Shown: one piece after another, positions 11,879 to 48,275 of the stretch
How the letters are laid out: the number at the start of each line of letters is the position of its first letter
Position numbering within the stretch: the stretch's first letter is position 1
Assembly: GCA_023132155.1 (NCBI GenBank)
Contig: JAGLYP010000002.1
Location: 6,598-70,597 of the forward strand
Reading direction: 5' to 3'
DNA: 64,000 bases
Origin: Candidatus Parcubacteria bacterium
GTDB lineage: Bacteria > Patescibacteriota > Patescibacteriia > Patescibacteriales > UBA12075
Notes under the pieces: model-generated
The model's input: the letters and a program-made list of their open reading frames with translations, nothing else
The model's database searches: none
Told to the model about the DNA's origin: nothing
Translations under genes and position numbers: made by a program

Positions 11879-13087
11879 ATGAAGATATTGCAAATAAATA
11901 AATTTTATTATTTTAAAGGCGGAAGTGAGCGCTATCTTTTTGATTTGTCTGAAATTTTAAAGAAAAACGGTCATAAAATTGTGCCGTTTTCTATGCAAAA
12001 TGACAATAATTTGCCAAGCAATCACGCGAAGTATTTTATTAAAGAAGTTGGTTTAAATAAATTTAATTTAATTAATATTTTTAAATTTTTTTATAATTAC
12101 GATGCCGTTAACAGGCTGAAAAAATTAATTAAAGACGAAAAGCCGGATATCGCGCATTTGCATAACATCGCCCATCAGCTAAGTCCCGCGATTATTAGAG
12201 TTTTGAAGCGGCACAATATTCCCATCGTACAGACTTTGCATGATTATAAATTAATCTGCCCCAATGCCAAACTTTTTGTTGATAATAAAAATTGCGAAAA
12301 GTGCCGCGGTGGCAAATATTATAATTGCCTGAAAAACAAATGCATGAAAGATTCTTATTTAAAAAGTTTTATGGCTGTGCTTGAGGCGTATTTATGGAAC
12401 CGTTTAATAAAAATATATGACAGGGTTGATGTGTTTATCGCGCCTAGCAAGTTTATGCGGGATAAGTGCGTTGATTTCGGAGTTCCAGCCGAGAAAATAA
12501 GAGTTGCTTATAATTTTTATGACGCACCCGTTAACAATCAGATGGAATTAGCAAGTGATGAAAAATATGTTTTGTATTACGGAAGATTGTCAAAAGAAAA
12601 GGGCGTGGATGTTTTACTGGAAGCAATGAAAAGCGTTAAACACGGAATTAAATTAAAAATAGTCGGTCCGGGGCCGGAATATAAAAATTTGGAAGAAAAA
12701 ATCAGCAAATTCAATTTGCAAGACAGGGTTTTTCTATTGGGTCCGAAATATGGCGGGGATTTGCAAACAATTATTAATCAAGCAATAGCCGTTATTGTGC
12801 CGTCGCTTTGGCCGGAGAATATGCCTTATTGCCTTTTAGAGCCGATGGCAATCGGCAAGATTGTGATTGTTTCCCGCGTAGGCGGTATGACCGAGATTAT
12901 TAAAAATCAAAAAAACGGTTTTTCTTTTGAGCCGGAAAATTTTCAGGCTTTAACAAAAATAATAAATAATTTGCAAAATTTTAATCAAGAAGAGATTGGA
13001 AAAAGAGCTATGGAAACAATAAAAAGATTAAATTCAAAAAAGCATTATCAGGAAATTTTAAAAATTTATTCTGAGTTGAGAAGATAA
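11879..13087 (+). CDS. family 4 (GT-B) glycosyltransferase
   Basis: MKILQINKFYYFKGGSE at the N-terminus. C-terminal E(x7)E-type region LLEPMAIGKIVIVSRVGGMTEII. Confidence 0.8.
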   Translation: MKILQINKFYYFKGGSERYLFDLSEILKKNGHKIVPFSMQNDNNLPSNHAKYFIKEVGLNKFNLINIFKFFYNYDAVNRLKKLIKDEKPDIAHLHNIAHQLSPAIIRVLKRHNIPIVQTLHDYKLICPNAKLFVDNKNCEKCRGGKYYNCLKNKCMKDSYLKSFMAVLEAYLWNRLIKIYDRVDVFIAPSKFMRDKCVDFGVPAEKIRVAYNFYDAPVNNQMELASDEKYVLYYGRLSKEKGVDVLLEAMKSVKHGIKLKIVGPGPEYKNLEEKISKFNLQDRVFLLGPKYGGDLQTIINQAIAVIVPSLWPENMPYCLLEPMAIGKIVIVSRVGGMTEIIKNQKNGFSFEPENFQALTKIINNLQNFNQEEIGKRAMETIKRLNSKKHYQEILKIYSELRR

Positions 13088-13188
13088 TTTTTGTTTTAAT
13101 TTTTTCAAGTAGTTTGGAAAAATTTGTGTTGGCTAAAATTGTCCCGCCTCCCAGCCCAGGTACAGAATGCCTAGGCTGCGTTTTTTCA

Positions 13189-13258
13189 ATCCCGCTAAAA
13201 GCGGGATATTTTTTATTGATGTTTTTATATATAGCCCCGCCCTTCGCGAAAGGCGGGG
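13189..13258. repeat. two REP-like GC hairpins (ATCCCGCT aaa AGCGGGAT; CCCCGCCCTTCGCGAAAGGCGGGG, family P3)
   Basis: Read directly. The second hairpin shares the CCCCGCC...GGCGGGG core with 27841-27880 and 52134-52187. Confidence 0.7.
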
Positions 13259-13340
13259 CGGCGGGTGGATGAGCGGAGCTGATTTTTTTTGACAGATTTT
13301 TACCCTCATGCTAAATTTAAAATAGAAATTTATTAAAAAT

Positions 13341-13955
13341 ATGATGAATAAAAAAATAACAATTTTAGTTTTGGTTTTAGCCGTGATGGCGGTTGTTTCG
13401 GGATGTGGGAAAAAAATAGAAAAATTTGTTACTAATGACAATATTACCAAAGATGATAATAAGTTACAGAAGACTGAAAAAAAAGCAACTACGACAGGAG
13501 AAATTATAGAATATATTGAAGGCAGTGAAATAGATATATCTAATTGGGAAATTTACCATAATAAACTACATGGATTTCAAGTAAGATATCCATTAAAATA
13601 TTTAGATAATAAAGATTATGAGATTTGGGAGATTGATAAAAATGTAAAATTTGAAGGTAACGATTGGGGCGTTAACAAATATCAAGAAACTATAATTCAT
13701 ATACAGACGTATCCCGCAGAAAAGGAAAATGATGTTTTTCAACATTTTAAATTTAGTTTTTTAAACAAGAAAATTATTTTGACTAACAATATTATAGCAA
13801 AAAGGGTTAAAGGACTGGGATGTGAAACTTGGTATATTAGACATAAAAAAAATATTTATATTATTTCTAGTAGTTTTTGTTTTGATTCTAAGGGAGCAGA
13901 GCTTGAATATTCAGAATATAGAAATATTATGAATAGTATTAAATTTGATAAATAA
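13341..13955 (+). CDS. lipoprotein, function unknown
   Basis: Signal peptide with lipobox VVSGC at residues 18-22. Confidence 0.6.
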   Translation: MMNKKITILVLVLAVMAVVSGCGKKIEKFVTNDNITKDDNKLQKTEKKATTTGEIIEYIEGSEIDISNWEIYHNKLHGFQVRYPLKYLDNKDYEIWEIDKNVKFEGNDWGVNKYQETIIHIQTYPAEKENDVFQHFKFSFLNKKIILTNNIIAKRVKGLGCETWYIRHKKNIYIISSSFCFDSKGAELEYSEYRNIMNSIKFDK

Positions 13956-14151
13956 AATAAAAAATAATCCTGTTTATAATTTAAAAGTTAAACTTCAACT
14001 AAGTTTTTAATTTTTTATTAAAATTGTAAATAGAATAGTTTTTTAACAGTTCTTTGACAACAAAATAAAATTAAGGAGGTGATAAATTAAACAAGTAAGT
14101 TGAATTATAGATGTTGGTATAAACCATTGACAACAAAAAGGAGAAACTGCA

Positions 14152-16431
14152 ATGAAAAAGAAAAAAAGTTTATTAGATTTTTGTATTATTGTGACATTTA
14201 TTGCTATAACAACGTTTTGTTTTTCTAGTAATGCTCAGGCACTTAATTATGGCGATGAAATGGGTTTTTTAAAAAATGTAATTGCCTATAGCAATGGATC
14301 CTATGCCGGCACTAGTCAAGGTAATTATCAATGTGTGGAATATGTAAAAAGATTTTATAGAGATGCTTTTGGTGTTTGTTTATTCCAGCAAGCTATCGGT
14401 GTTGCAAGAAATTATTATCTGGAATATGATGCAAGAAATTTAGATCGATTTGGTTTGGTTCGCTATCAAAATGGACAAAGTGCTGAATTACCAAAGCCTG
14501 GTGATATTTTAGTATTTAATCATACAAATAGAATTGGTCATGTGGCTATTATAAGGTATGTCCAAAATAATTCAGTATTTTTTATTGAACAAAACTGGGA
14601 TAGCGACGAATGTTTTAACAGTTTATCAATCACTGGAAATGCCAGCAATGGAAATTATACAATAACTAATAGAGAAAATTATACTGTGCTTGGTTGGTTG
14701 CATCTGTCAGTAGGCGAATATAGTACTGGTTGGCACTTTGAAGATATGTGTACTCAGTATTCTGACGAACAATCCCAACCATTTGTAGATGCTTATTTGA
14801 ACAATAATGACTCTGATATATTAGGGTTACCAACTGGCTATGTTAGCAGTATGCCGTATGGCTCAGGAGAAATATGGTGGCAGAATTTTGAAAAAAACGG
14901 TCACATATATTCTCTTGTACGTAATGATTTTGTGTACAATACAGTTCGTTTGTATTTAGGCGCTGTATATCCAGTTCATGGGCAAATAAGAAATTATTGG
15001 ATAAACGCATATTGGGTTTTTGGTCCTCCTGTGTGTAATGAATATTATTATCCAGAAGGCACAAGGGATTATGTGGTGCAATGGTTTGAACCATCTGACA
15101 ATTATTTTGTGTCAATTGCTTATCAAACCGCTACTGGCGAATTTTATGAAAATTTGTCGTGTATTAGTCCTGATGCAGAATATTTTAATCAGGATAAATT
15201 AAAAAATTGCGCGTCTAATTCTGAAGGATGTGGTGGCGGCGAAGATCCACCCCCACCCCCCGACTACACCTACTCCGGCTCCTGGATCTGCGAAGGCAAA
15301 GACAGTGACGGTCAGCCGATTAACCAAAGAACCGAGTTTGCCGCCGGAGACAGCGTATGCGCGTTAACCACTGTTACCGACATTAGCATTCCTCATCGCT
15401 GGCTAACAGAGTTTTATTGCAATGGAGGATTCTCATGGGATGATGAATCTCCTTGGCTGAATCCTAACGGAACTTGGGCAAGTTCATCTGCGGCCCCTGT
15501 TTGGGAAAATATTAATCCGGGAAGTTACACCACTGAAACATTTTTAGACACAGGAAACGGCTATGAGCTAAAGTCTGAAAATGCGTTTACCGTGACTAAT
15601 GACGGACCTGATTATGTGTTTGAATGCGCTTGCGTATGCGAAGGCTGGGAATACGGTTCGTCTGACCCCAATTCACCTGATTATTGGAATCTGCAGCCGA
15701 TTAATTCCGGCAGTGTATTTATCGCCGGAGATACAATATATTCGTTTGCGAAAGCAAGCGATATTTTTGTTGACCATAGTTGGAAAACGGAATTTTATTG
15801 CGACGGAGTATTTTCATGGGCTGATGAATCTCCATGGATGGATGTCGGAAGCGGCTGGAGTTATTCAACAGCAAAACCGCCTTGGGCTAATATAGGCGCA
15901 GGGAGTTATGAAGCCAGAGTTTTACTTGATACCGGTTCCGGGTATGAACTCAAAGCCGCTAATAGCTTTACTGTTAATCCGCCATCAGCGCAAACAATTC
16001 CTTATTCGGAATCGTTTGGCGATGATCAGGGCGGTTTTATTTTGGAAAATAATAACGGACAAGGCTCAATGAGCCAGACAACTTATGATAATCGCGAATG
16101 CTTGATGATAAGCAATAATCAAGCCGGCGAATGCTGGCATGTGCAAGCAAAAAAAGTCGGTCTTGTTATAGATAACGGAACTCCGTATATGCATCAAATT
16201 ATTGCCAAAGCTGATCAGCCGTGCCGGATTTACGTTGTTGTACAACGCGATGTTGACCCATGGGATAATCTTGGTTTGTGGCATGAGATTGATTTGACAA
16301 ATGAATGGCAAAGTTTTACTTTGCAATTCAACGCAAATGACACCCCTGATCCGTACGAAGTGCGTTACTCCATAATGATCGGGAATATTGCAGGTACTGT
16401 TTATGTTGACTTTATCGGACTGCAAAATTAA
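14152..16431 (+). CDS. secreted CHAP-domain cell-wall hydrolase with Pro linker, two tandem Cys/Trp-rich repeats and a C-terminal CBM-like module
   Basis: GGAG RBS and a signal peptide. CHAP catalytic context is NYQCVEYVKRFY ... GHVAII. PPPPP linker at 15247-15261. C-terminal beta-sandwich-like region (WQSFTLQF...VYVDFIGL). Confidence 0.75.
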   Translation: MKKKKSLLDFCIIVTFIAITTFCFSSNAQALNYGDEMGFLKNVIAYSNGSYAGTSQGNYQCVEYVKRFYRDAFGVCLFQQAIGVARNYYLEYDARNLDRFGLVRYQNGQSAELPKPGDILVFNHTNRIGHVAIIRYVQNNSVFFIEQNWDSDECFNSLSITGNASNGNYTITNRENYTVLGWLHLSVGEYSTGWHFEDMCTQYSDEQSQPFVDAYLNNNDSDILGLPTGYVSSMPYGSGEIWWQNFEKNGHIYSLVRNDFVYNTVRLYLGAVYPVHGQIRNYWINAYWVFGPPVCNEYYYPEGTRDYVVQWFEPSDNYFVSIAYQTATGEFYENLSCISPDAEYFNQDKLKNCASNSEGCGGGEDPPPPPDYTYSGSWICEGKDSDGQPINQRTEFAAGDSVCALTTVTDISIPHRWLTEFYCNGGFSWDDESPWLNPNGTWASSSAAPVWENINPGSYTTETFLDTGNGYELKSENAFTVTNDGPDYVFECACVCEGWEYGSSDPNSPDYWNLQPINSGSVFIAGDTIYSFAKASDIFVDHSWKTEFYCDGVFSWADESPWMDVGSGWSYSTAKPPWANIGAGSYEARVLLDTGSGYELKAANSFTVNPPSAQTIPYSESFGDDQGGFILENNNGQGSMSQTTYDNRECLMISNNQAGECWHVQAKKVGLVIDNGTPYMHQIIAKADQPCRIYVVVQRDVDPWDNLGLWHEIDLTNEWQSFTLQFNANDTPDPYEVRYSIMIGNIAGTVYVDFIGLQN
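15265..15981 (+). repeat. intragenic tandem duplication of a domain of about 110-120 aa (15265-15600 and 15610-15981)
   Basis: The repeats align by eye: CEGK/CEGW, AGDS.CA/AGDTIYS, H.W.TEFYC.G.FSW.DESPW, G.W..S.A.P.W.NI..GSY, LDTG.GYELK..N.FTV. Confidence 0.75.
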
Positions 16432-37954: not shown

Positions 37955-38028
37955 TCGGGGATCGTCTAATGGTAGGACATCAGGTTCTGGTCCTGGGTAT
38001 CGGGGTTCGAATCCCTGTCCCCGAGCCA
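37955..38028 (+). tRNA. tRNA-Gln (anticodon CTG), CCA encoded
   Basis: Hand-folded. Acceptor TCGGGGA/TCCCCGA. D arm GTCT-AATGGTA-GGAC. Anticodon stem TCAGG/CCTGG with loop TT-CTG-GT. T arm CGGGG-TTCGAAT-CCCTG. Discriminator G plus CCA. Confidence 0.9.
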
Positions 38029-38312: not shown

Positions 38313-38555
38313 TTAGGCCGCAATCTTCAATTTTGTTAATTTTGCGTTTAAAGCTAACTTTATATATTCAATCATCCGGCTAAATCCTGTCCGTCCGGCG
38401 CTTTCAGCAGTTTCGTCGTCCTCAAATTCTTTGACCACTTCAAAATCATTTGCTTTGGCATAATCGGCAAGCAATTTTCTTTGAGCGGGGATTGAGTATC
38501 CCTCTTGTTTTTGTTCTTTGGATGATACGCGGACGTAGATTATTGATTTTGGCAT
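38313..38555 (-). pseudogene. serine recombinase, N-terminal catalytic stub only (about 68 homologous aa)
   Basis: IIYVRVSSKEQKQEGYSIPAQ (catalytic Ser motif) and GRTGFSRMIEYI. Homology stops after about 68 aa and the ORF ends at 80 aa. No recombinase-like sequence downstream. Confidence 0.7.
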
Positions 38556-38559
38556 AAAT

Positions 38560-40419
38560 TTATAATTCCATGGTTGTCTGCTTATGCTTTTTTTCTAGTT
38601 TTTTATTAATTTTTTCTATCTTCTTTCTCTGTGTTTCAAGCATATTTTCCGTTCTTTTTGAAATTATTGTGTAATGAGATTCTGGTAATTCTTTTTTAAG
38701 AAATAAACCTTCAATATAGCGCATCCTTTCTTCAAGTTCTTGAATATTGTCTTTCGTTTCTTCATATTCTAAATCTAACGACTCTTCTTCTAGGGCGATA
38801 TCTAAAACATATGTAAATCCCCTGTATGCGGCTTTATGAATATCGGAATTACACACTTCTAATAACCTTGAAGGTACTTTTGGAATAATACCTCTGTGTA
38901 GGGCAACCCCAAAATCAAGCGAGCACAAAATTCCTGACCCTTTCCAGTTGGCTAAACTAGTTTTTCTGGATCTTGTTCTTTTTTTATCATGGATAATACC
39001 GACGGAAATTAAATTTGCTATTTCACCTGCGCTTCTAGCCGCAGTAGTAAAATATATTGTAATAGGTGTTTTTTTATCTGTATCAAGTCCGCTATTTTTA
39101 GTTTCAATACCCTTATTTCTCCGAGCAAATTTTTTTATTATTTTTTCCAATATTATGTTATCTTGATCGGTTAATGTGCTGTCGATTAATAAAGATGGTC
39201 CTTCTATAACTTGCGCTACTGCTGAAATTATATAGTTTATATCAATTTTTTTTGGAGTTTCAGTTTTTTTCTTTTCAAAATCTCTGATTAATTGTGTGTA
39301 GGCTTGTTTTAATATTTCAAGAAATCGTCTTGGCACACCTCCGGAGCAATAAGCAGCAATTGTTATTAAATTTTCATTTTCAAATACTTCGCTAATTGAT
39401 TTTTGAGTCTTTGTGTTTTTTGTCAATCTATTTTCAATTAATTGTTTAAAAAATGGCTCGTATTCATCGTTTAACTCATCTAATTCTAAATATTCCAATG
39501 TACAATCATGGCCAGGCTGAAAATTAAAATCATCCCCTCGAGTTGTTGCGGGATAATACGTGCTATGTGGAGGATAAACAGCAGCAATAAATACAATGTC
39601 AGGATTACATAAGTCCTTACCTCCACTTGCAGACCCCCTTATTTGTTTGCAGAGTCGAAAAATTTCGATTTGCATTTTTTTTGTTGATTCTGAACACTCA
39701 TCCAATAGTATGTAAATATAATTTAAGTTAAGTAATTTTTTTACAGTTTTTAGAAATGATATTAGGATATCAATTCCGTAGATATCAGATAGTTTTTGAG
39801 TCGTGTATTCTTTAATTTTTTCATCCTCAGAAACATTTTCCATTTTCGCTGTTGCAGATAGGGGCGGCATATCTATTCCAACGCCGCCTTCAGAATTAAA
39901 TTTTTTGCATACCCTTGTTATAATTTTATCTGGGTTGTCATACAAATCGCTTATGATATTATTTGCAAGTAACAATATTTTTTTTATATTTTTTTCAAGA
40001 GTAGCTTCTTCGCTTATTCCAAATAAATTTACTAATTTTTTAACCATTCCAGCTTCCGTTTCGTTTATAAATTTTTCTTTATTATCATTAATAAATTTCA
40101 TTACATATTTGATAACACTGATATATAAAAAAACTCTAAAATATTTAGGATCCTTTTTAGTTAATTGCGGCGCACTTGCGACAGTAACATATGCGGGGAT
40201 AATCCTAGTTTTGTTTAAATTATTTGATGCTTCTGTGATTATCATTTTTAATATGTGCGTTTTTCCCGTTCCTCTTATTCCTTCTAATATATAATTCCCG
40301 CCTTTTTGAGAAATCAATTTTTTAAAATCGATACATAAATCTACGTGGGTATCTGGAGAAAAACCAGAACTTTGTGCATCATGGTTAAATATTGTTGAAT
40401 CTATTTGTATTACACTCAT
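38560..40419 (-). CDS. ORC/Cdc6-like AAA+ ATPase with C-terminal coiled coil, function unknown
   Basis: Walker A GIRGTGKTH. Walker B YIYILLDECSES. Sensor-2-like GGVPRRFLEILKQA. K/E-rich coiled coil in the last 80 aa or so. Confidence 0.6.
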   Translation of the reverse strand: MSVIQIDSTIFNHDAQSSGFSPDTHVDLCIDFKKLISQKGGNYILEGIRGTGKTHILKMIITEASNNLNKTRIIPAYVTVASAPQLTKKDPKYFRVFLYISVIKYVMKFINDNKEKFINETEAGMVKKLVNLFGISEEATLEKNIKKILLLANNIISDLYDNPDKIITRVCKKFNSEGGVGIDMPPLSATAKMENVSEDEKIKEYTTQKLSDIYGIDILISFLKTVKKLLNLNYIYILLDECSESTKKMQIEIFRLCKQIRGSASGGKDLCNPDIVFIAAVYPPHSTYYPATTRGDDFNFQPGHDCTLEYLELDELNDEYEPFFKQLIENRLTKNTKTQKSISEVFENENLITIAAYCSGGVPRRFLEILKQAYTQLIRDFEKKKTETPKKIDINYIISAVAQVIEGPSLLIDSTLTDQDNIILEKIIKKFARRNKGIETKNSGLDTDKKTPITIYFTTAARSAGEIANLISVGIIHDKKRTRSRKTSLANWKGSGILCSLDFGVALHRGIIPKVPSRLLEVCNSDIHKAAYRGFTYVLDIALEEESLDLEYEETKDNIQELEERMRYIEGLFLKKELPESHYTIISKRTENMLETQRKKIEKINKKLEKKHKQTTMEL

Positions 40420-40546: not shown

Positions 40547-42106
40547 TTAATTTAATTTTGATCTAAATTTTTCAAACACCTTGCTTGTATATTGTTCCAT
40601 ATCAACAAAATTTTCTTTTTTAAGAGTTATGTCAACAAAATCTTCTATGTTGTAAGGCTTGATGTTTATCTCATTTTTTTCAGTTTTGCTTTCCACGACA
40701 GAAAAATCATAAAACTTTTTTGTGTCTTCATGAATTACCGGAGCGATAAAAGATAAATATTTTTTTGCATGATCAATAAATTCCTCGCCTGAACTTAGAT
40801 GCCTAATCACGGAAGTTGTTTCATTATTTAATTGCTGGGATTTATTTCTTATTAATGTAACTTCAATTAGCCAATACAATTTTAGAGAATAAATTTCAAT
40901 ATCACCTATATTGCCTGGCGCGTGAGAATAAGGTTTGCCTATGTGGTCGGCTTTATAATTGGGTCGTATTGCAAACTCTTTGCCGTATTTAAGCGCCACC
41001 AGTATAGTAATATAAAATTCTAATTTTAATGGTTTAGGTATTTCCTGAAATTCTTCAATGATTTCCTTTTTCGAATCAATTAAATTTATGCTTTGACAAA
41101 TTATTTTTTCATTTATTTTGTAAGTATTTATAATATTGAATACTTTGTTTGCGTATTCTTCACCGTCTATTCGATCAACTTCACGATATTTTTCTACAAT
41201 CGCCAAATATTCATCGTTGGTGCTATCTAATTTGTTAAAATATTTTTTTGCGTCTTCCTTTTCTGTTGAGTCCAATGAGAACTCAACGGATAATATTTTT
41301 TTAATGTAGTCTAATTTATTTTCATTAATTTGCATTAATTTAATTCCGTCATAACGAATTGTCACAAACCCGGAAATAATTAAAACTCGTCTTACAACAT
41401 CTGGATAATCCCTAACTATGGTTTCTGTTTTATTTGTAGCGCCATAATTTTTTCTCACAAAATTTTCTGCAGCGTTAGCGTCTTTGAATTTATTATTTTT
41501 TATAATATTTAAAAATTCCCTAACATCACCATCGCAACTGAACATGGACACAATAAATTGCTCATAGCTTAAAGATTTATTTTTTTTACGCAAAGTAAAA
41601 AGGACTTCAAGGATAAATTTGAAAAAATTATAATCATTTTTTATATTTCTATAAGGAGATTTACGATTTGATTTCATTGCCTGAATTGAAAAAGCCTCTT
41701 GTTCATCAATTTTTTCCTCAATTAGCATTTTAGCAATTTTTGAAAATTTAAATTCTTCATTATATTGCGCATAAACCATTCCTAATTCTGACATGGTTCG
41801 CATGTACGTCCAGAATCTTGAAGTGTATCCAGCAGGAAAGCCGCCGTCTGCTCTTCGCGTACTATTTACTTTAATAACTTTATTTTTAATATTAGCTACG
41901 GTCGAAGTTTCTGTAATAACTATTCCGTCACTCTTGAATTCTCCGATTAAATATAGATTGCTGACAATCTCCAGTAAACGTTTCTTGTCTAAAATTTTAC
42001 CTTCATATTTTTTTAAAGCCTTTAAAATTCCTAAATATCTTTCAGGATTTCTAACAGCAGTTTCAAAAGCCATTTGTTTATAAGTAGGTTTTCTTTTTGT
42101 CGTCAT
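40547..42106 (-). CDS. AlwI/MlyI/PleI/N.BstNBI-family type IIS restriction endonuclease-like protein
   Basis: Recalled family motifs: N-terminal RNPERYLGILKALKKYEG (cf. RSPEK...L..L..FEG of N.BstNBI) and catalytic region HAPGNIGDIEIY...LIEVTL (cf. HAAGNQPDMEII...GEVTT). Operonic with two adenine MTases. Confidence 0.7.
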   Translation of the reverse strand: MTTKRKPTYKQMAFETAVRNPERYLGILKALKKYEGKILDKKRLLEIVSNLYLIGEFKSDGIVITETSTVANIKNKVIKVNSTRRADGGFPAGYTSRFWTYMRTMSELGMVYAQYNEEFKFSKIAKMLIEEKIDEQEAFSIQAMKSNRKSPYRNIKNDYNFFKFILEVLFTLRKKNKSLSYEQFIVSMFSCDGDVREFLNIIKNNKFKDANAAENFVRKNYGATNKTETIVRDYPDVVRRVLIISGFVTIRYDGIKLMQINENKLDYIKKILSVEFSLDSTEKEDAKKYFNKLDSTNDEYLAIVEKYREVDRIDGEEYANKVFNIINTYKINEKIICQSINLIDSKKEIIEEFQEIPKPLKLEFYITILVALKYGKEFAIRPNYKADHIGKPYSHAPGNIGDIEIYSLKLYWLIEVTLIRNKSQQLNNETTSVIRHLSSGEEFIDHAKKYLSFIAPVIHEDTKKFYDFSVVESKTEKNEINIKPYNIEDFVDITLKKENFVDMEQYTSKVFEKFRSKLN

Positions 42107-42113
42107 ATGAATA

Positions 42114-43019
42114 TTAATAATTAGTAATCAAAACCTCCTTTATCTTTTTTTTCTTGTTATTATGATAGCTAATATAATTACTTATTATTTTATGTGCTTT
42201 ATATTTTTTCATCCATTTAATTAATAATTCGTTTCTATCTCCGTTATAGTGTGTTACATTTGAGAGCGCGAATTTTACCCCTTGTTTATTTAATGAATCG
42301 GCTAAATCTAATAAATCAGCTTCTGATTTTTTATCCCAAAGTTTGTTGTATTCACTTGCAGCAATTAGGTATGGCGGATCTAAGTAGATAAAATCATTCT
42401 TTGTAATTTTTTTTCTAGAGAAAAACGTCCGAAAATCTTTTGTGCTTAAATATATTTTTTTATCAAAAACAAAATCAAAATAATTATTTAAAGCGTTGAC
42501 AACATTTTTGTTAAAATCCACGTTACCAACTGGCAGATTAAATTTGCCACCTCCATTAAATCTAAGCATTCTGTTAAAACCGTAAATAAGCAAAATATAC
42601 AAAATTAACGGATTGTTTTGTTTGTTCTTGTTGACCTGTACTCTGAGTTTTTCATAGCCTTCTTTGTTGAATTTGGCAAAATAAGTTTTAACCCACTCTT
42701 TTCTTAGAGTGGCCGGAATTATATTTTTTTTATATGATCTTGATAAATTGTATTTGTAAATTATTTTTTCAACATCTCGAAAAAATTTATTAGGATTTTT
42801 AGCGCTCTTGATTAAGAAGTTATGAATGTTAACAAGATTTTTATCAATATCATTCAAATAATATTTATTTGCGTTTATATTTAAAAAAACTGTTCCTCCG
42901 CCAGTAAAAGGTTCATAAAAATTATTTATTTTATTTGGAAACAAATCAATTAGCTGTTTCATCAGCTTATATTTATCTCCGACATAAAATAAAGGTGATC
43001 TTTTTATTTTTTTATTCAT
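42114..43019 (-). CDS. D12-class (Dam-like, alpha) N6-adenine DNA methyltransferase
   Basis: FYVGDKYKL, EPFTGGGTV (motif I), FNRMLRFN..GKFNLPVG, and LDPPY (motif IV). Confidence 0.85.
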   Translation of the reverse strand: MNKKIKRSPLFYVGDKYKLMKQLIDLFPNKINNFYEPFTGGGTVFLNINANKYYLNDIDKNLVNIHNFLIKSAKNPNKFFRDVEKIIYKYNLSRSYKKNIIPATLRKEWVKTYFAKFNKEGYEKLRVQVNKNKQNNPLILYILLIYGFNRMLRFNGGGKFNLPVGNVDFNKNVVNALNNYFDFVFDKKIYLSTKDFRTFFSRKKITKNDFIYLDPPYLIAASEYNKLWDKKSEADLLDLADSLNKQGVKFALSNVTHYNGDRNELLIKWMKKYKAHKIISNYISYHNNKKKKIKEVLITNY

Positions 43020-43020
43020 G

Positions 43021-44823
43021 TTAAACCTTGGTTACAAATAAATATTCTTTATGATTGTTAAAATTTGTGTTGCCAGCGTTAAAATGTCTATATTTTTTTT
43101 CAAAAATTTTCGTTTTGCCTTTTTTTGCTAATATGTCTTTAATCTCCTGAAGTGTAATTTTATTTTTTGATGAATTACTTTTTGATTCGTAAGTATTATT
43201 ATATGAAACCACAAGATATTTTACATTAAGGTCTTGAACTAATTTATTAAATTTGTCTTTAGCTTGAACTCGACAATAATCGCTCATATTTTCAGGCTCT
43301 GGCTTTAAGGCTACTCCATATAGGCTTGGTTTATCCCATTTCGTCAAAGTTTCTAAAACATGATAAAAACGGCTGTATTGTCTTGAATTATATGGTGGGT
43401 CTATATAAACAATATCTGCGTTAATTTTTTTGGCAAGTTGATTTGTATCTTCTCTATAAATAGAAATATTTTTTACACTAATTGGATCTATTGGTCGCAT
43501 AAAGAATTTATCATCAATAAAATCCTTTTTAAAATACGCATCATAGTGTCCAACAGTATTTGCAATTTTGTCAATTGAATATAGTAATGACGAAATAAGC
43601 ATGTAATATTCCTTGGTTGTCAAATTATCTTTGTTATCTTCAATATTATTTCTAATGGTACCAATAATTTTTGATGAATTTTGACTAAAATATTTTCCGC
43701 CAAAATTTTTAGAAAAATAATTATCACTTAGATTTTCTCTTTCAATACTATTATAGTCTTTGATTATATTTTCAATTTTTTCTTTGTTCCATTCACCGTT
43801 CCCAAAAAAGGCTTGATAAATGGCATAATTGGAAAATAAAAAATCATTCAATATTATTTTTTTAAAATGTTTTGCTGCGACAGCAGAGACAACGCCTGTT
43901 CCCGCGAATACATCAACAAACGAATCACCGCTGCACTCTTTTTCAAGAATGGAAAAAATCCACTCAATTAATTTATATTTACTGCCAATATATCTACGAT
44001 TTTGTAATTGAATATAATTTTTTTTAACTGGTGGTATATAAAAATATGTTTCTTGAATTTTTTCAGCGTTTACTTCATAAGTTGGTTTTTCCGCTTCCAT
44101 TAAATCAAATAAAGTTCCTTGTACACCATCTGCTACATAGTCAACGTTTGCGCTTTGACCTTTTAATTTATTATAAAAACTATAACTACCCTTGCTGGCT
44201 GTAATTATAAAGTCTATAACAGGAATGCCCATTAAATCACTAGCGCCTGTTATTCTTTTAACAATTTTGATATCTTTTTCACTCGGATTTGGATTTCCTG
44301 AAGGATGATTATGTACTAGAATAATACACGCAGCATTTAATTCAACGGCTGGTTGAAAAATTTCTCTTGGGTGCAATAAACTCTTATCCAAAAGACCGAC
44401 ACTTATTATTTCCTTTTTAATTAAAATATTTCTGGCATTTAAATATAAGCATACCAAATACTCCTTTTTTTTGTCCCTTAAATCATAAGTTAATGATAAA
44501 ATATTTTTTGAGTTTTTTATTATTATTTCATTACTTTCTTTATCTTCATAAAATCTTTTTACTAACGAAATAGCTGAAATTATTTGCAAAGCCTTGGCTT
44601 GTCCAATACCGGAAATTTTTAGAAGATCATCAATGGAAATATTTAGAAAATTATTACCAAATTTTTTTATTATCTGCTGAGAAAGTTTTTGTACATTTTT
44701 ACCTTTTATGCCGCTTCCTAGCAGGATAGCTAATAAATCACTTTTGGAAAGCGAGTCAGGACCTTTTTGCAAAAATTTTTCCCTAGGCCTATCAACTTGT
44801 GGAATGTCTTTTATCTTTGGCAT
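43021..44823 (-). CDS. fusion protein: RadC-like JAB/MPN domain (aa 1 to about 225) plus D12-class N6-adenine DNA methyltransferase (aa about 270-600)
   Basis: RadC motifs DRPREKF, GIGQAKA and HNHPSGNPNPSEKD. MTase motifs RYIGSKYKL, DVFAGTGVV and YIDPPYNSRQY. Confidence 0.8.
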   Translation of the reverse strand: MPKIKDIPQVDRPREKFLQKGPDSLSKSDLLAILLGSGIKGKNVQKLSQQIIKKFGNNFLNISIDDLLKISGIGQAKALQIISAISLVKRFYEDKESNEIIIKNSKNILSLTYDLRDKKKEYLVCLYLNARNILIKKEIISVGLLDKSLLHPREIFQPAVELNAACIILVHNHPSGNPNPSEKDIKIVKRITGASDLMGIPVIDFIITASKGSYSFYNKLKGQSANVDYVADGVQGTLFDLMEAEKPTYEVNAEKIQETYFYIPPVKKNYIQLQNRRYIGSKYKLIEWIFSILEKECSGDSFVDVFAGTGVVSAVAAKHFKKIILNDFLFSNYAIYQAFFGNGEWNKEKIENIIKDYNSIERENLSDNYFSKNFGGKYFSQNSSKIIGTIRNNIEDNKDNLTTKEYYMLISSLLYSIDKIANTVGHYDAYFKKDFIDDKFFMRPIDPISVKNISIYREDTNQLAKKINADIVYIDPPYNSRQYSRFYHVLETLTKWDKPSLYGVALKPEPENMSDYCRVQAKDKFNKLVQDLNVKYLVVSYNNTYESKSNSSKNKITLQEIKDILAKKGKTKIFEKKYRHFNAGNTNFNNHKEYLFVTKV

Positions 44824-44826
44824 ACT

Positions 44827-44986
44827 TTATTTTATTAAATCATCTTCAATCTCAATAATATCATCCCTATTAATATCCAATGCCTCTGCAATTGAATCAA
44901 AAAATAATCCGTCATCTCTTAATTTGTTGCAGGTTTCAGACGAGCATTTAATTTGAATTGTTATTTTATCATTATTTTTATTCATA
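44827..44986 (-). pseudogene. frameshifted small HTH (XRE-like) regulator, 4 nt upstream of the RadC-MTase gene
   Basis: ATG at 44986 opens MNKNNDKITIQIKCSF then TGA. The +1 frame continues SETCNKLRDDGLFFDSIAEALDINRDDIIEIEDDLIK* (helix-turn-helix-like). One extra T near 44940 breaks the frame. Confidence 0.45.
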
Positions 44987-45121
44987 GCATTTTATTTTAT
45001 TAAATCATCAATACCAATTTCCAAGACTTTGGCAATTTTAAAATTTTATTACACTGTTGTAAGCATTATTATATCACAATTTTAATAATAGATAAACAAC
45101 TAAAAAGTTGTGTAATAAAAG

Positions 45122-45337
45122 CTAAAATTCACAAGCAACCCCATCAGAATCGTCATCCAAATTATGAACATCATAACCGACTTTTTGCATACAACAATCA
45201 TACATATCACGCGCCTTACGGCGCGTTTTAAAGTCCGCGCAATTATAATGGTCAGAGCGGCAAGAACGGGCTATGTTAATTTTTGCGGAATAAAAATGGA
45301 CAAAAAGGTTAGCATAAATTAAAAAATGTACGTACAA
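45122..45337 (-). CDS. Excalibur calcium-binding domain protein (short, possibly a fragment)
   Basis: C-terminal NCADFKTRRKARDMYDCC....DVHNLDDDSDGVACEF matches the Excalibur DxDxDGxxCE signature. Confidence 0.55.
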   Translation of the reverse strand: MYVHFLIYANLFVHFYSAKINIARSCRSDHYNCADFKTRRKARDMYDCCMQKVGYDVHNLDDDSDGVACEF

Positions 45338-45629
45338 ATGTACGTACTCCGCCCGTACATAATTTTTTATCCAGACGTAATAGCATATTAATAAGCAAAC
45401 CGGCTGTTTGCTTGCTTATCGGCAATTCCGAAATAATAGCTGATAAACGAGCGCCCTCTAAAAGAGAATTTTGATAGGCAAACCAAGTCCGAGAAGGCTC
45501 GATATGCGCTTTTACATATCACATTGCCGAAGTAATAGATGATTTTTCCAAATATGACCTTGGTAGTTTTCATTTTTTACATAAACAAGTTCCATATATA
45601 AACTTCTATGATTTTGAATTAGCAAAGAA

Positions 45630-45659
45630 AAAAGCCTTTTCGCGCGCGAAAAGGCTTTT
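45630..45659. terminator. perfect 30-bp palindrome, terminator of the 45689 gene
   Basis: AAAAGCCTTTTCGCG | CGCGAAAAGGCTTTT, flanked by A/T runs on both sides. Confidence 0.75.
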
Positions 45660-45688
45660 TGCTAATATTTTTTATAAATATCGCCTTT

Positions 45689-46354
45689 CTATTTATTATT
45701 TCCATTCCCATTCCCATTCCCCATGGAAATAATTGTCTGTTTGAATAGATTGGCAAGCTCTATTGGAATTTTTTTTATTTTTTCTTGTATCAGTTCGGAA
45801 ACCCAAAGCTCAAGCGGCCCGTCCTCTCTCAAATAAATTTGATAGAGTTTGTTGTAAATTTCCGAATTGTATTCTTGAAGTACGCAGAAAAGGATTTCTC
45901 GCAATTGATTAATTGTTTCTTCAATTTCAAAAAATTCATCTTCTTTTGCCGCGAAAATTTGATTCATATCCAATAAATCAATAATGCGCTTATCATCCAT
46001 GTCTTTTTCATTTCCATTCTGCGCGTCTAACACCTCAATTTTTTTTTCTATCTCCTCTGATTCTCTGATTAGGCAAACGGCTTTTTTGTTTAGTTTTTCT
46101 AATTTTTGACAGACTTTAGCCACTTCCGGGTGCAGTTTGCTCCAATCGCGGGTTGCAGGTTTAATTAAAAATCGTGTAATCGAAATTTCATCTTGGCCAT
46201 TAAGGGTAATTGCCAAGGTGGTGCTGGTCGTCCGCAGGTCTTTAATACTTTCTTTGGTTTTGAGTTTGACGTCAGTAAACTCAGTCAAGTCATGTCCGTT
46301 TAAGATGAGGTTAAAGATAGTGCTTGGGTTGCTTACGGAAACGTTTTGTATCAT
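45689..46354 (-). CDS. hypothetical protein with coiled-coil middle and (GN)n tail
   Basis: 221-aa ORF with GGAG upstream. The C-terminus MGNGNGNGNNK is encoded by an imperfect hexanucleotide repeat (GGGAAT-type units on the coding strand, about 45703-45726). Confidence 0.5.
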   Translation of the reverse strand: MIQNVSVSNPSTIFNLILNGHDLTEFTDVKLKTKESIKDLRTTSTTLAITLNGQDEISITRFLIKPATRDWSKLHPEVAKVCQKLEKLNKKAVCLIRESEEIEKKIEVLDAQNGNEKDMDDKRIIDLLDMNQIFAAKEDEFFEIEETINQLREILFCVLQEYNSEIYNKLYQIYLREDGPLELWVSELIQEKIKKIPIELANLFKQTIISMGNGNGNGNNK

Positions 46355-46826: not shown

Positions 46827-48275
46827 TTATTTTGGCGGTGGCGGCACAAAACAGCTAACATTATCACTCTCGTTACCGCTAGTGTCAATTGCGTAAATTA
46901 TAGCATCGCTATTCAGCATTATGTGGGCGGAAATGGCTCCGGCTTGTCCTTTGGCGCTTCCCATGGGCTTTAACTTTGGCGTTGCTCCCGGACTTTCCGT
47001 GATTTTAACCTTATCGCCAGGCGCGAAAGGCCCGAACGGACCGGCTCCATATTTATCAGTTACAAAAATTTCAAGTGTTTCGTTAACATTGTCAACGGCC
47101 AACAGTTCATAGAATCCATCTTCATTTTTTCCTCCTTTGGATCCCGGCAGAGTAGTGCTTCCGGCTGGCGGGATTTTTTTGCCGTGCGGATTAACCGTTT
47201 CAACACAGCTTGCCTCCGGCGGAGTGGTGTCTGGCACGTAGATTGAAATTTTTTGGCGCCCAATCGGTTTTCCTTCTTCAGGGTAGCTATTGGCGATAAA
47301 TGTGACGATGCATTCCAGAGTTTTACCTTGAAGTTCCGGATCATCGTCTACGGCAATTGTTTCAGTAAAGTCAACAGTAGCGCCTCCGAGAACGTCTTTG
47401 TGGACAATTGGATCAAGCGTCACTGAAAGGCCTTCGTCGCAGTCGCCTTCCTTAATATTCCACCACACGTCAGTGGTTACTTCTTTAAGTCCGTTTAAGA
47501 TTGCCTCGGCGATATTGGCGCCGTCCGGACTTAAGGGCTGTACAGAGCCTCTGGTAGCGGCAGCCAGTACATCAAGCTCCGAATCAGTACCTGTTGCCTT
47601 AAGGCCGATTACAACGATGTTCTGAGCTTGAAGTGCGGCGATTGTTGAGGTTGCGTTATTGACATGCGGCTTGCCAACGCCGGGCAAGTGAAATGTCGCG
47701 TCAGTAGCTACTACAAGGACGCGCTGAACACCTGGTGTGATAGCTGGATCGCGCCATCCGCAGTCAGGCGTACCATCTCCAGGTCCTGTCGCGGCAACAA
47801 TAGCGTCGTACTGGGCTTCCGGCCAATCTCCGCCGCCGGCCGCGGTTAACGCGTTAACGCCGTTCATCCATGCATCTTTATCAGGACTCATGGTGCTTAA
47901 CAAACGATAAACATGATCGCCTGGAGAGCCGTAAGGCGGTTCATAATCACGAAAACCGGCAACAGCGAATTGAGCATCCGGACTTTCCGCTGTAATAGCA
48001 TCATAAATATCACTGGATGTAGTACCCTGCAGATTGTCAATATCATCCCAAAATGAGCCGGTTTCATCTTCAAGCAGACAAATATCCACAACAGTAGGAA
48101 CTTCAGGCGTGGTTATTTGTTTTTTTACTACCATGGATCCGCCCGGAGGCAACTCGCCCTCCACTGAAGGCGGTTCAATTTGTCCGTTAGCTCGCGATAC
48201 GCTAACAGCATTAGAGAAAACCATGCCCATACCGATAATAATGGTAAAGACAAGAAAAATTTTAGGTTTTTTCAT
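46827..48275 (-). CDS. secreted VWA/integrin-beta-like domain protein
   Basis: GGAGGG RBS and a signal peptide. MIDAS-like LEDETGSF (DxTGS) after a beta strand. Pro-rich C-terminus ending PPPPK. Strongly G+C-enriched relative to the window. Confidence 0.5.
   Translation of the reverse strand: MKKPKIFLVFTIIIGMGMVFSNAVSVSRANGQIEPPSVEGELPPGGSMVVKKQITTPEVPTVVDICLLEDETGSFWDDIDNLQGTTSSDIYDAITAESPDAQFAVAGFRDYEPPYGSPGDHVYRLLSTMSPDKDAWMNGVNALTAAGGGDWPEAQYDAIVAATGPGDGTPDCGWRDPAITPGVQRVLVVATDATFHLPGVGKPHVNNATSTIAALQAQNIVVIGLKATGTDSELDVLAAATRGSVQPLSPDGANIAEAILNGLKEVTTDVWWNIKEGDCDEGLSVTLDPIVHKDVLGGATVDFTETIAVDDDPELQGKTLECIVTFIANSYPEEGKPIGRQKISIYVPDTTPPEASCVETVNPHGKKIPPAGSTTLPGSKGGKNEDGFYELLAVDNVNETLEIFVTDKYGAGPFGPFAPGDKVKITESPGATPKLKPMGSAKGQAGAISAHIMLNSDAIIYAIDTSGNESDNVSCFVPPPPK

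Follow-up and report, generated by a model that had tools for sequence, protein, structure and literature searches.

A RadC–D12 adenine methyltransferase fusion in an AlwI-family Type IIS restriction-modification cassette: a recurrent accessory module with a candidate clamp-binding peptide

Introduction

Type IIS restriction-modification (R-M) systems of the AlwI family employ two methyltransferases (MTases), one per strand (PMC9799307). RadC ranks among the most widespread bacterial proteins of elusive function, papers from 2025-26 still calling its role elusive or unknown, and its published fusions, as given in the accessible parts of the sources, involve a helix-hairpin-helix (HhH) domain, ArdC-N, DnaG primase and DinG helicase (Iyer et al. 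2011, 2017; DinG review 2025). The present study concerns a gene, designated here RadC-M1, in which RadC is fused to a D12-type adenine MTase within an AlwI-family cassette. The gene is one feature inside a stretch of 64,000 nucleotides from a Candidatus Parcubacteria bacterium (assembly GCA_023132155.1, contig JAGLYP010000002.1, positions 6,598 to 70,597 of the forward strand), and it is this whole stretch that is called the window below.

MTases with N-terminal regulatory DNA-binding domains are represented by the helix-turn-helix (HTH) MTases of the SsoII/EcoRII type and by C-protein control. The eukaryotic DNMT1 binds PCNA via its PCNA-interacting peptide (PIP) box, and the bacterial clamp-binding proteins include Hda, Pol II/IV/V and MutS/L, the consensus for binding the bacterial beta clamp being QL[S/D]LF, usually placed in disordered tails or linkers. 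As for RadC itself, the E. coli radC gene is said to have been tied genetically to replication-fork defects by Saveson and Lovett in 1999. The analysis presented here describes RadC-M1 as a standard Type II R-M MTase bearing an undescribed, recurrent accessory module, and it leads to the tentative proposal—with a probability of roughly 0.4—that this module, consisting of RadC and a linker, may tether the MTase to replicating or newly made DNA.

Results

Domain organization of RadC-M1

RadC-M1 occupies positions 43021..44823 of the minus strand, where the open reading frame (ORF) call gave one unbroken frame of 600 residues, starting with ATG and closed by a stop codon. According to Pfam, it contains the RadC N-terminal HhH domain UPF0758_N (PF20582; residues 4-78, 82 bits), the RadC JAB domain (PF04002; residues 103-218, 121 bits) and MethyltransfD12 (PF02086; residues 278-536, 133 bits, profile positions 1-244 of 253); in NCBIfam, the RadC equivalog NF000642 was matched with 207 bits (cut-off 180) and TIGR00608 with 199 bits (cut-off 134). 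With its 600 residues and its fused MTase, the protein is thus not a stand-alone RadC of ~220 residues. On the minus strand of the window, the HhH domain, for which weak HHH matches were also obtained, corresponds to 44539..44823, the JAB/MPN domain (residues 96-222) to 44158..44538, the inter-domain linker (residues 223-270), predicted to be disordered, to 44014..44157 and the alpha-class D12 N6-adenine MTase domain M1 (residues 271-600) to 43024..44013.

All the motifs quoted in the original prediction, which had been made from the sequence of the window, were found in the frame of RadC-M1: DRPREKF (11-17), the hairpin GIGQAKA (72-78) and HNHPSGNPNPSEKD (171-184) in the RadC part, and RYIGSKYKL (277-285), FAGTG (306-310) and DPPYNSRQY (475-483) in the MTase part, the order X-I-IV of the latter being that of an alpha-class D12 enzyme. 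A complete RadC and a complete alpha-class D12 MTase, as then claimed, are both confirmed, the former by the presence of HhH and JAB, the intact JAMM ligands and the score above the NF000642 cut-off, the latter by the motifs X, I and IV and the extent of the PF02086 match. The prediction had also named two findings that would speak against it, i.e. a stop or frameshift at the junction and a loss of the JAMM metal ligands; no ligand is lost on alignment, and the junction holds neither stop nor frameshift, 27 intact frames and more than 120 protein clusters (see below) being in agreement. The gene does lie inside an R-M operon, with the second MTase (M2) and an AlwI-family restriction endonuclease (REase) adjoining it. 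A linker between RadC and the MTase is likewise present, although the word 'short' then used for it hardly suits ~45 residues (223-270) that include a conserved motif.

The JAMM metal site (44272..44364, minus strand) is formed by E154 within HPREIF, H171-N-H173-P-S175 and D184. In the alignment of 31 homologues (alignment A1), E154, H171, H173 and D184 are invariant and position 175 is occupied by Ser or Thr; the residues align with HPREIF/HNHPSG/PS..D of the RadC crystal structure 2qlc. The structural model was built by AlphaFold2 (AF2) on an alignment of 117 sequences, to which diverse RadC-only and M1-only rows had been added, whereas that from the shallow alignment of 31 near-identical fusions, with a predicted local distance difference test (pLDDT) value of 57, was not used. 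The model has a mean pLDDT of 81 and a predicted TM-score (pTM) of 0.56; its two domains are confident (pLDDT 85-91 in the HhH domain), their relative placement is undefined and residues 224-265 of the linker reach a pLDDT of 29-40, the protein looking in this model like beads on a string. In Foldseek, the JAB domain model matched 2qlc with a TM-score of 0.88, a root-mean-square deviation of 1.7 Å and 35% identity, and the MTase model superposed on E. coli Dam. Since the selection acting on the JAB domain is as strong as that on the MTase (see below), the JAB domain is probably catalytic, with proteins bound to DNA and DNA ends or flaps as candidates for its substrate.

Reality of the fusion and selection

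A homologue search covering 5.8 billion proteins (NCBI, JGI, ENA and Logan assemblies) revealed more than 120 protein clusters, defined at 90% identity, that share the same Pfam architecture, are 601-610 residues long and exhibit 75-80% identity. The scan of species-representative genomes found the full-length fusion in 29 loci, 27 of which yielded independently assembled genes, all of them intact and coding for 600-605 residues. The exact protein has been deposited as MCK4539580.1, 'DNA repair protein RadC [Candidatus Parcubacteria bacterium]', from a 769-kb contig. It should be pointed out that the fusions are named in public databases either 'DNA repair protein RadC' or 'adenine-specific DNA-methyltransferase', each name concealing the other half of the protein.

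Among the 27 intact genes, synonymous sites are near saturation (pS ~0.7, as against pN ~0.1), and the dN/dS values of 0.058 for the HhH domain, 0.056 for the JAB domain, 0.128 for the linker and 0.032 for the M1 MTase point to purifying selection on every part of RadC-M1. The idea that two adjacent genes have been wrongly joined by an assembly error or a frameshift finds some encouragement in the split ORFs of a few related loci (L062, L065 and L075, all of the C5 family described below), but deserves practically no credence and is refuted by the compared sequences: the frame is intact in the 27 independent assemblies, the clusters from the NCBI, JGI, ENA and Logan assemblies concur, and the linker itself is conserved and under purifying selection. 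In some loci the match lengths (~2488) gave the appearance of a ~690-bp insertion; this is neither an intron nor an intein, and reflects a weak match of the query to the paralogous M2.

Recurrence of the RadC module on other methyltransferases

In the HMMER search of 1.84 billion representatives, the fusion family forms one cluster (P0121), accompanied by a second RadC-D12 lineage (P0123) that is 40% identical. The nearest relatives of the RadC module are located on C5 cytosine MTases—P0135, P0138 and P0132 with 60-63% identity and P0226 with 42%—and, in P0200, on a beta-class N6_N4 MTase. A metagenome scan produced 27 loci matching the RadC-C5 fusion P0135 over its full length, 24 with intact genes and three with the gene split in two ORFs. 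Directly downstream of RadC-C5, in all the loci except one short contig, there is an ORF of ~363 residues, and the single representative subjected to a Pfam scan proved to be an endonuclease of the HpaII family (350 bits).

A quick neighbour-joining tree of RadC places the fused members in two clades, each mixing MTase classes. One of them groups the D12 and the HpaII-type C5 fusions, the other P0123 (D12), P0226 (C5) and P0200 (N6_N4), and the ordinary RadCs of 220 residues are positioned outside both. The census of the second clade comprised mostly stand-alone or truncated proteins, and a fusion count taken from it is unreliable. MTases without RadC were found among both the D12 (L028, L030, L031 and L033) and the C5 enzymes (L066-L105, 57-82% identity). 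Because RadC is fused to several MTase classes and the same MTases are found without it, RadC together with its linker is a portable N-terminal module of R-M MTases that has been repeatedly gained, exchanged and lost. Four M1 homologues (P0157, P0206, P0215 and P0240) have apparently kept the HhH domain and the linker with the JAB domain deleted, a state supported by Pfam in P0206 only and judged by eye in the full-length P0157 (479 residues), the other two being short and perhaps truncated. If real, such variants may indicate that most of what the MTase gains from the module comes from HhH and linker.

Some further arrangements were observed in relation to these families. A full LexA, i.e. 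a winged HTH with the S24 self-cleaving peptidase, precedes an M1-type D12 MTase in P0149 (558 residues), with QLPLF in the linker; P0129 (773 residues) consists of an S24 peptidase followed by M1-M2; and a LexA-like gene abuts a decayed RadC-M1 at L035:9550-10000. The LexA/S24 arrangements hint at SOS-linked control of R-M MTases. In three loci (L050:3237-5480, L053:4886-7129 and L062:3148-5391), a protein of 463 residues with a weak GmrSD_N match is followed by a D12 MTase of 282 residues; clustering into defence islands is suggested downstream of some RadC-C5/HpaII cassettes.

The linker and its QxxLF peptide

The linker is variable with the exception of the peptide Q235-G-T-L-F-D-L241 (44101..44121, minus strand), in which, according to alignment A1, no variation occurs at Q235, L238 and F239 and hardly any at G236 and T237. 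The HpaII-type C5 fusions possess DYVAEGxQxS[LF]FDL at the matching position of their linker, and other fusions have QKSLF, QMGLF or QQSLF. Besides the LexA-MTase fusion with its QLPLF, the motif is seen as QRTLF in an apparently JAB-less variant, and the RadC-less M1 of L028 retains VQGTLFESL in a short N-terminal tail. The chance expectation of a QxxLF-type motif is ~0.04 per 70 residues, and Q..LF occurs twice in the 19,363 residues of the window ORFs. As in beta-clamp-binding proteins, QGTLF (235-239) is QL[SD]LF-like, conserved and situated in a disordered region; the linker peptide QxxLF(D)L resembles their motif and represents a candidate for beta-clamp binding.

Distribution and mobility

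The fusion loci are hosted by Atribacterota, Gammaproteobacteria, ~11 lineages of Patescibacteria, Planctomycetota, Margulisbacteria, Desulfobacterota, Nitrospirae, Bacillota and one Nanoarchaeota bin, covering at least ten phyla in all; the taxon labels are those of metagenome bins, some on short contigs, and several fusions lie on contigs of 87-294 kb. A viral origin was considered and rejected, as two IMG/VR scans of 2.9 million viral contigs gave no RadC-MTase fusion, the relatives found there being MTase-only (at most 59% identity) or, in two cases, RadC-only. Among the ORFs examined around the cassettes—R-M genes, the HTH gene and the DUF4357 gene—no conjugation genes were noticed. Because of the wide host range, the lack of a copy on these viral contigs and the cassette context, the element is an old, horizontally mobile, chromosomal R-M cassette.

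The restriction-modification cassette and its island

On the minus strand, RadC-M1 is followed by M2, the AlwI-family REase, an ORC/CDC6-like ATPase and a resolvase fragment of 80 residues. M2 (42114..43019, 301 residues), located 1 nt after M1, is a second Dam-family D12 MTase (PF02086, 104 bits; TIGR00571 dam, 139 bits with a cut-off of 115; PADLOC PDLC03383), and the Type IIS REase (40547..42106, 519 residues) matches PF09491 (182 bits) and PADLOC REase_II PDLC03507. PADLOC assigned M1, M2 and the nuclease to its Type II MTase and REase models; since MTase_II PDLC03373, matched with 424 bits over its full profile (339 positions), aligns only from residue 271 of M1 onward, the reference M1 model does not contain the RadC part. 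RadC-M1 is the first of two adenine-N6 MTases in a Type IIS cassette composed of RadC-M1, M2 and an AlwI-family REase, and the modification of the two strands would, by analogy with the described AlwI-family systems, be divided between M1 and M2. The same triplet is found in 37 related loci wherever the contig reaches far enough and M1 bears RadC, M2 adjoining M1 in all the loci compared. Neither GAGTC/GACTC nor GGATC/GATCC is notably depleted among the k-mers of the host part of the window and of the flanks pooled from 23 loci, so that nothing on the recognition sequence can be drawn from them. The REase (40547-42106) shares only ~27% identity with the sister REases (L001-L032; at ~12,700-14,200 in most loci), while the MTases share 75-80%, and its type was seen only in L018 and L023 (Planctomycetia; 65-72% identity); either the REase has been swapped behind conserved MTases or it is evolving much faster.

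Upstream of many cassettes there is an XRE-type HTH gene of 66-70 residues, a DUF4357 protein of 282 residues, or both. What is left of the HTH controller gene in the window, at the upstream edge of the island, are its last 15 codons, KIAKVLEIGIDDLIK, with the stop (44992..45039, minus strand), to be compared with the intact HTH_3 genes of 66-70 residues that end in KIAKALEVGVDDLIK and a stop in L026, L018, L015 and L019. A perfect 19-nt direct repeat, TTTATTTTATTAAATCATC, at 44826-44844 and 44991-45009 surrounds an ORF of 52 residues immediately upstream of the fusion (44827..44985, minus strand; no family match); since the repeat is the 3' end (...DDLIK and stop) of the lost controller gene, a duplication or insertion at this place is suggested. 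No conserved operator was found upstream of the gene, the DNA there being conserved only where it codes for the HTH or DUF4357 genes, and the N-terminal domain of RadC-M1 is, according to Pfam, an HhH and not a sequence-specific HTH. The protein of 282 residues, with a C-terminal DUF4357 and a weak match to RAMA ('Restriction Enzyme Adenine Methylase Associated'), has its gene between that of the HTH protein and RadC-M1 in roughly half the cassettes (L012:9149-9997, L015:9150-9998, L018:9150-9998, L026:2744-3592 and others) and is without a counterpart in the window.

The island has a GC content of 0.24-0.31, compared with ~0.35 in its flanks, and its far end is marked by tRNA-Gln(CTG) (37955..38028, plus strand; ARAGORN); in eight other loci tRNA genes, mostly tRNA-Ser, are located at most ~1.5 kb from the cassette. 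No att-like direct repeat of the tRNA-Gln end was detected at the opposite border of the island, just the 19-nt repeat around the 52-residue ORF. Between the REase and tRNA-Gln are the ATPase (38560..40419, minus strand, 619 residues; PF24389, 45 bits; a weak PADLOC mad8 match) and the truncated serine recombinase, of which the resolvase N-terminal 80 residues remain (38313..38555, minus strand; PF00239, 44 bits, profile positions 2-60 of 145). The former may be a defence gene in its own right and the latter a leftover of integration machinery; neither gave a tblastn match in the 37 related loci. A decaying cassette was encountered in an Elusimicrobia genome, where a 1.36-kb insertion (L035:10630-11992) breaks M1 and the RadC part is internally deleted.

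Beside the island, an ORF of 482 residues (46827-48275, minus strand) with 45-56% GC (genome ~35%), a signal-peptide-like N-terminus and weak VWA-domain matches looks like a separate foreign insertion. The same region contains, on the minus strand, an ORF of 221 residues (45689-46354) ending with a GNGNGNGN tail and lacking any family match and an ORF of 71 residues (45122-45337) with a weak Excalibur calcium-binding match, as well as a strong bidirectional terminator hairpin at 45629-45660.

Discussion

Proposed role of the RadC module

In the proposal made here, the RadC-linker module would leave the methylated target unchanged and would alter where and when methylation happens. The HhH domain would bind DNA without sequence specificity and the QxxLF peptide would dock on the beta sliding clamp, both jointly keeping the MTase at replication forks or wherever else DNA is being synthesized. 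Target sites that are newly made and still unmodified would then be methylated before the cognate endonuclease cuts them, and the benefit would be greatest while the cassette is becoming established in a new host.

Several points weigh against this tethering. The binding of RadC to forks in these organisms is a supposition, and the role of RadC itself is called elusive in the papers from 2025-26; moreover, since some relatives work without it, RadC is dispensable for the basic R-M function. The JAB active site, although strongly conserved, is left without a role in the proposal. Concerning the peptide, just 5-7 residues long, its binding to the clamp is a prediction, most of its instances are homologous rather than independent, its second position is G, S or K in place of the usual L, and it is degenerate in some fusions (P0138 and P0200); the extended conservation, DYVA[DE]GxQxxLFDL, could point to another binding partner or to a short segment that folds. 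A bolder version of the idea, which we consider doubtful, would make RadC a replisome- or clamp-associated factor and the RadC-tagged MTases a prokaryotic counterpart of the DNMT1-PCNA coupling, in which the MTase would be carried along on the sliding clamp by means of the HhH domain and the QxxLF peptide. The JAB domain would remove or process a target at the fork, for example a protein that is stalled or bound to DNA, perhaps the cognate endonuclease. If so, the JAB activity at the fork would amount to 'restriction alleviation' built into the MTase, and the 40-year-old question of the role of RadC would become testable by a simple R-M read-out.

The RadC part might alternatively be, as the original prediction had also suggested, a regulatory module, here a controller-like one that determines when or how strongly the MTase and the REase are expressed, or that releases or inactivates the MTase by (auto)proteolysis upon a DNA signal, in a manner reminiscent of LexA or of the SsoII-type HTH-MTases. 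The same N-terminal slot of homologous M1 MTases is indeed occupied by HTH_3 (P0124, P0189, P0136 and P0177), by LexA (P0149) or by the S24 peptidase (P0129), a LexA-like gene abuts the decayed RadC-M1 of L035, and the window has lost its separate HTH controller apart from the 15-codon remnant; JAB domains, in addition, are best known as peptidases, metalloproteases being the only structural relatives reported for RadC-like domains (PMC11981726). Such a role nevertheless seems unlikely to us. The HhH binds DNA non-specifically, unlike the operator-binding HTH domains; a separate XRE-type HTH gene is present directly upstream in at least ten of the 24 cassettes examined (e.g. L002, L010, L015, L018, L019 and L026), where the controller role is therefore already filled; no conserved sequence was seen upstream of the cassette beyond the HTH and DUF4357 genes; and the linker is without Gly-Gly or another known JAB cleavage site. 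Equally to be weighed is RadC as an anti-restriction or establishment factor, its fusion with the MTase serving as a two-in-one entry kit, and the original prediction had entertained a polyvalent anti-restriction protein of mobile-element origin captured by the operon. RadC/ArdB modules do occur on mobile defence islands (PMC12458937), and the cassette is clearly mobile, being spread across phyla, adjacent to tRNA genes and part of a low-GC island. This RadC, however, is of the full-length chromosomal type with HhH and JAB and passes the NCBIfam equivalog threshold, the fusion is absent from the 2.9 million viral contigs scanned, the ORFs examined near the cassettes showed no sign of conjugation genes, and the MTase, invariably accompanied by its own REase, is therefore a cognate modification enzyme, not an orphan protective one; the entry-kit role is thus quite improbable, and the captured anti-restriction protein of the prediction is not upheld.

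A housekeeping radC joined by chance, which would hitch-hike with the cassette and do the normal job of RadC with no link to methylation, could be imagined because RadC is near-universal in bacteria, and, no second radC being present within the 64-kb window, the fused copy could be the only one of its host. Against this stands the movement of the fusion with the cassette through at least ten phyla that own stand-alone RadC types, the clustering of the fused RadCs in clades of their own, their joining to three unrelated MTase superfamilies, the conserved linker motif and the strong purifying selection inside a mobile element, so that a neutral fusion is very hard to believe.

The tethering of the MTase to new DNA being retained as the working proposal, the repeatedly reinvented and strongly selected link of RadC with three unrelated classes of R-M MTases offers a new guilt-by-association clue to its function, one that would connect it with the handling of freshly synthesized or unmodified DNA. 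A single cassette would make an easy experimental system, with methylation and self-restriction as read-outs. Were the linker peptide to bind the sliding clamp, a coupling of R-M MTases to the replisome would be shown for the first time, no bacterial R-M MTase with a clamp-binding motif or with sliding-clamp binding having been reported in the literature searched; it would also explain how small-genome bacteria relying heavily on R-M defence, such as those of the candidate phyla radiation (CPR), spare their own DNA from cutting.

Comparison with known systems

The cassette is closest to the AlwI-family Type IIS systems (AlwI, PleI, MlyI and N.BstNBI), in which the two adenine MTases are separate or fused and with which it shares the operon arrangement of a PF09491 REase beside a pair of D12 m6A MTases, the full-length PADLOC matches and the M1-then-M2 order, the latter seen also in the models of the known fused M1-M2 proteins (PDLC03292 and PDLC03287). 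It differs from them in the N-terminal extension of M1, formed by 270 residues of RadC and linker. The likeness of this extension to the stand-alone RadC of the YicR/YsxA type (PF20582 with PF04002; 2qlc) concerns the HhH N-domain, the JAB fold and the JAMM residues, whereas its position in clades that are mostly MTase-fused and the linker peptide, lacking in typical RadCs of 220 residues (e.g. P0286 and P0366), set it apart.

With regard to MTases carrying an additional N-terminal DNA-binding module, the SsoII/EcoRII-type HTH-MTases are comparable, all the more as HTH_3-M1 fusions exist among the homologues; the module described here is, however, HhH with JAB, and the cassettes often possess an HTH controller gene in addition to it. 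The bacterial clamp binders and the DNMT1-PCNA pair, for their part, share with RadC-M1 a short Q-x-x-L-F peptide in a disordered segment beside a DNA-acting enzyme, the peptide of RadC-M1 being a candidate for clamp binding. Finally, the RadC-ArdC-N, RadC-DnaG and RadC-like DinG fusions, judged from the accessible portions of their descriptions, equally join RadC to an enzyme acting on DNA, but the partner in the present case is a DNA MTase within an R-M operon, a combination of which no mention was found in the accessible portions of the literature searched. The new point is the recurrence of the RadC tag on unrelated MTases.

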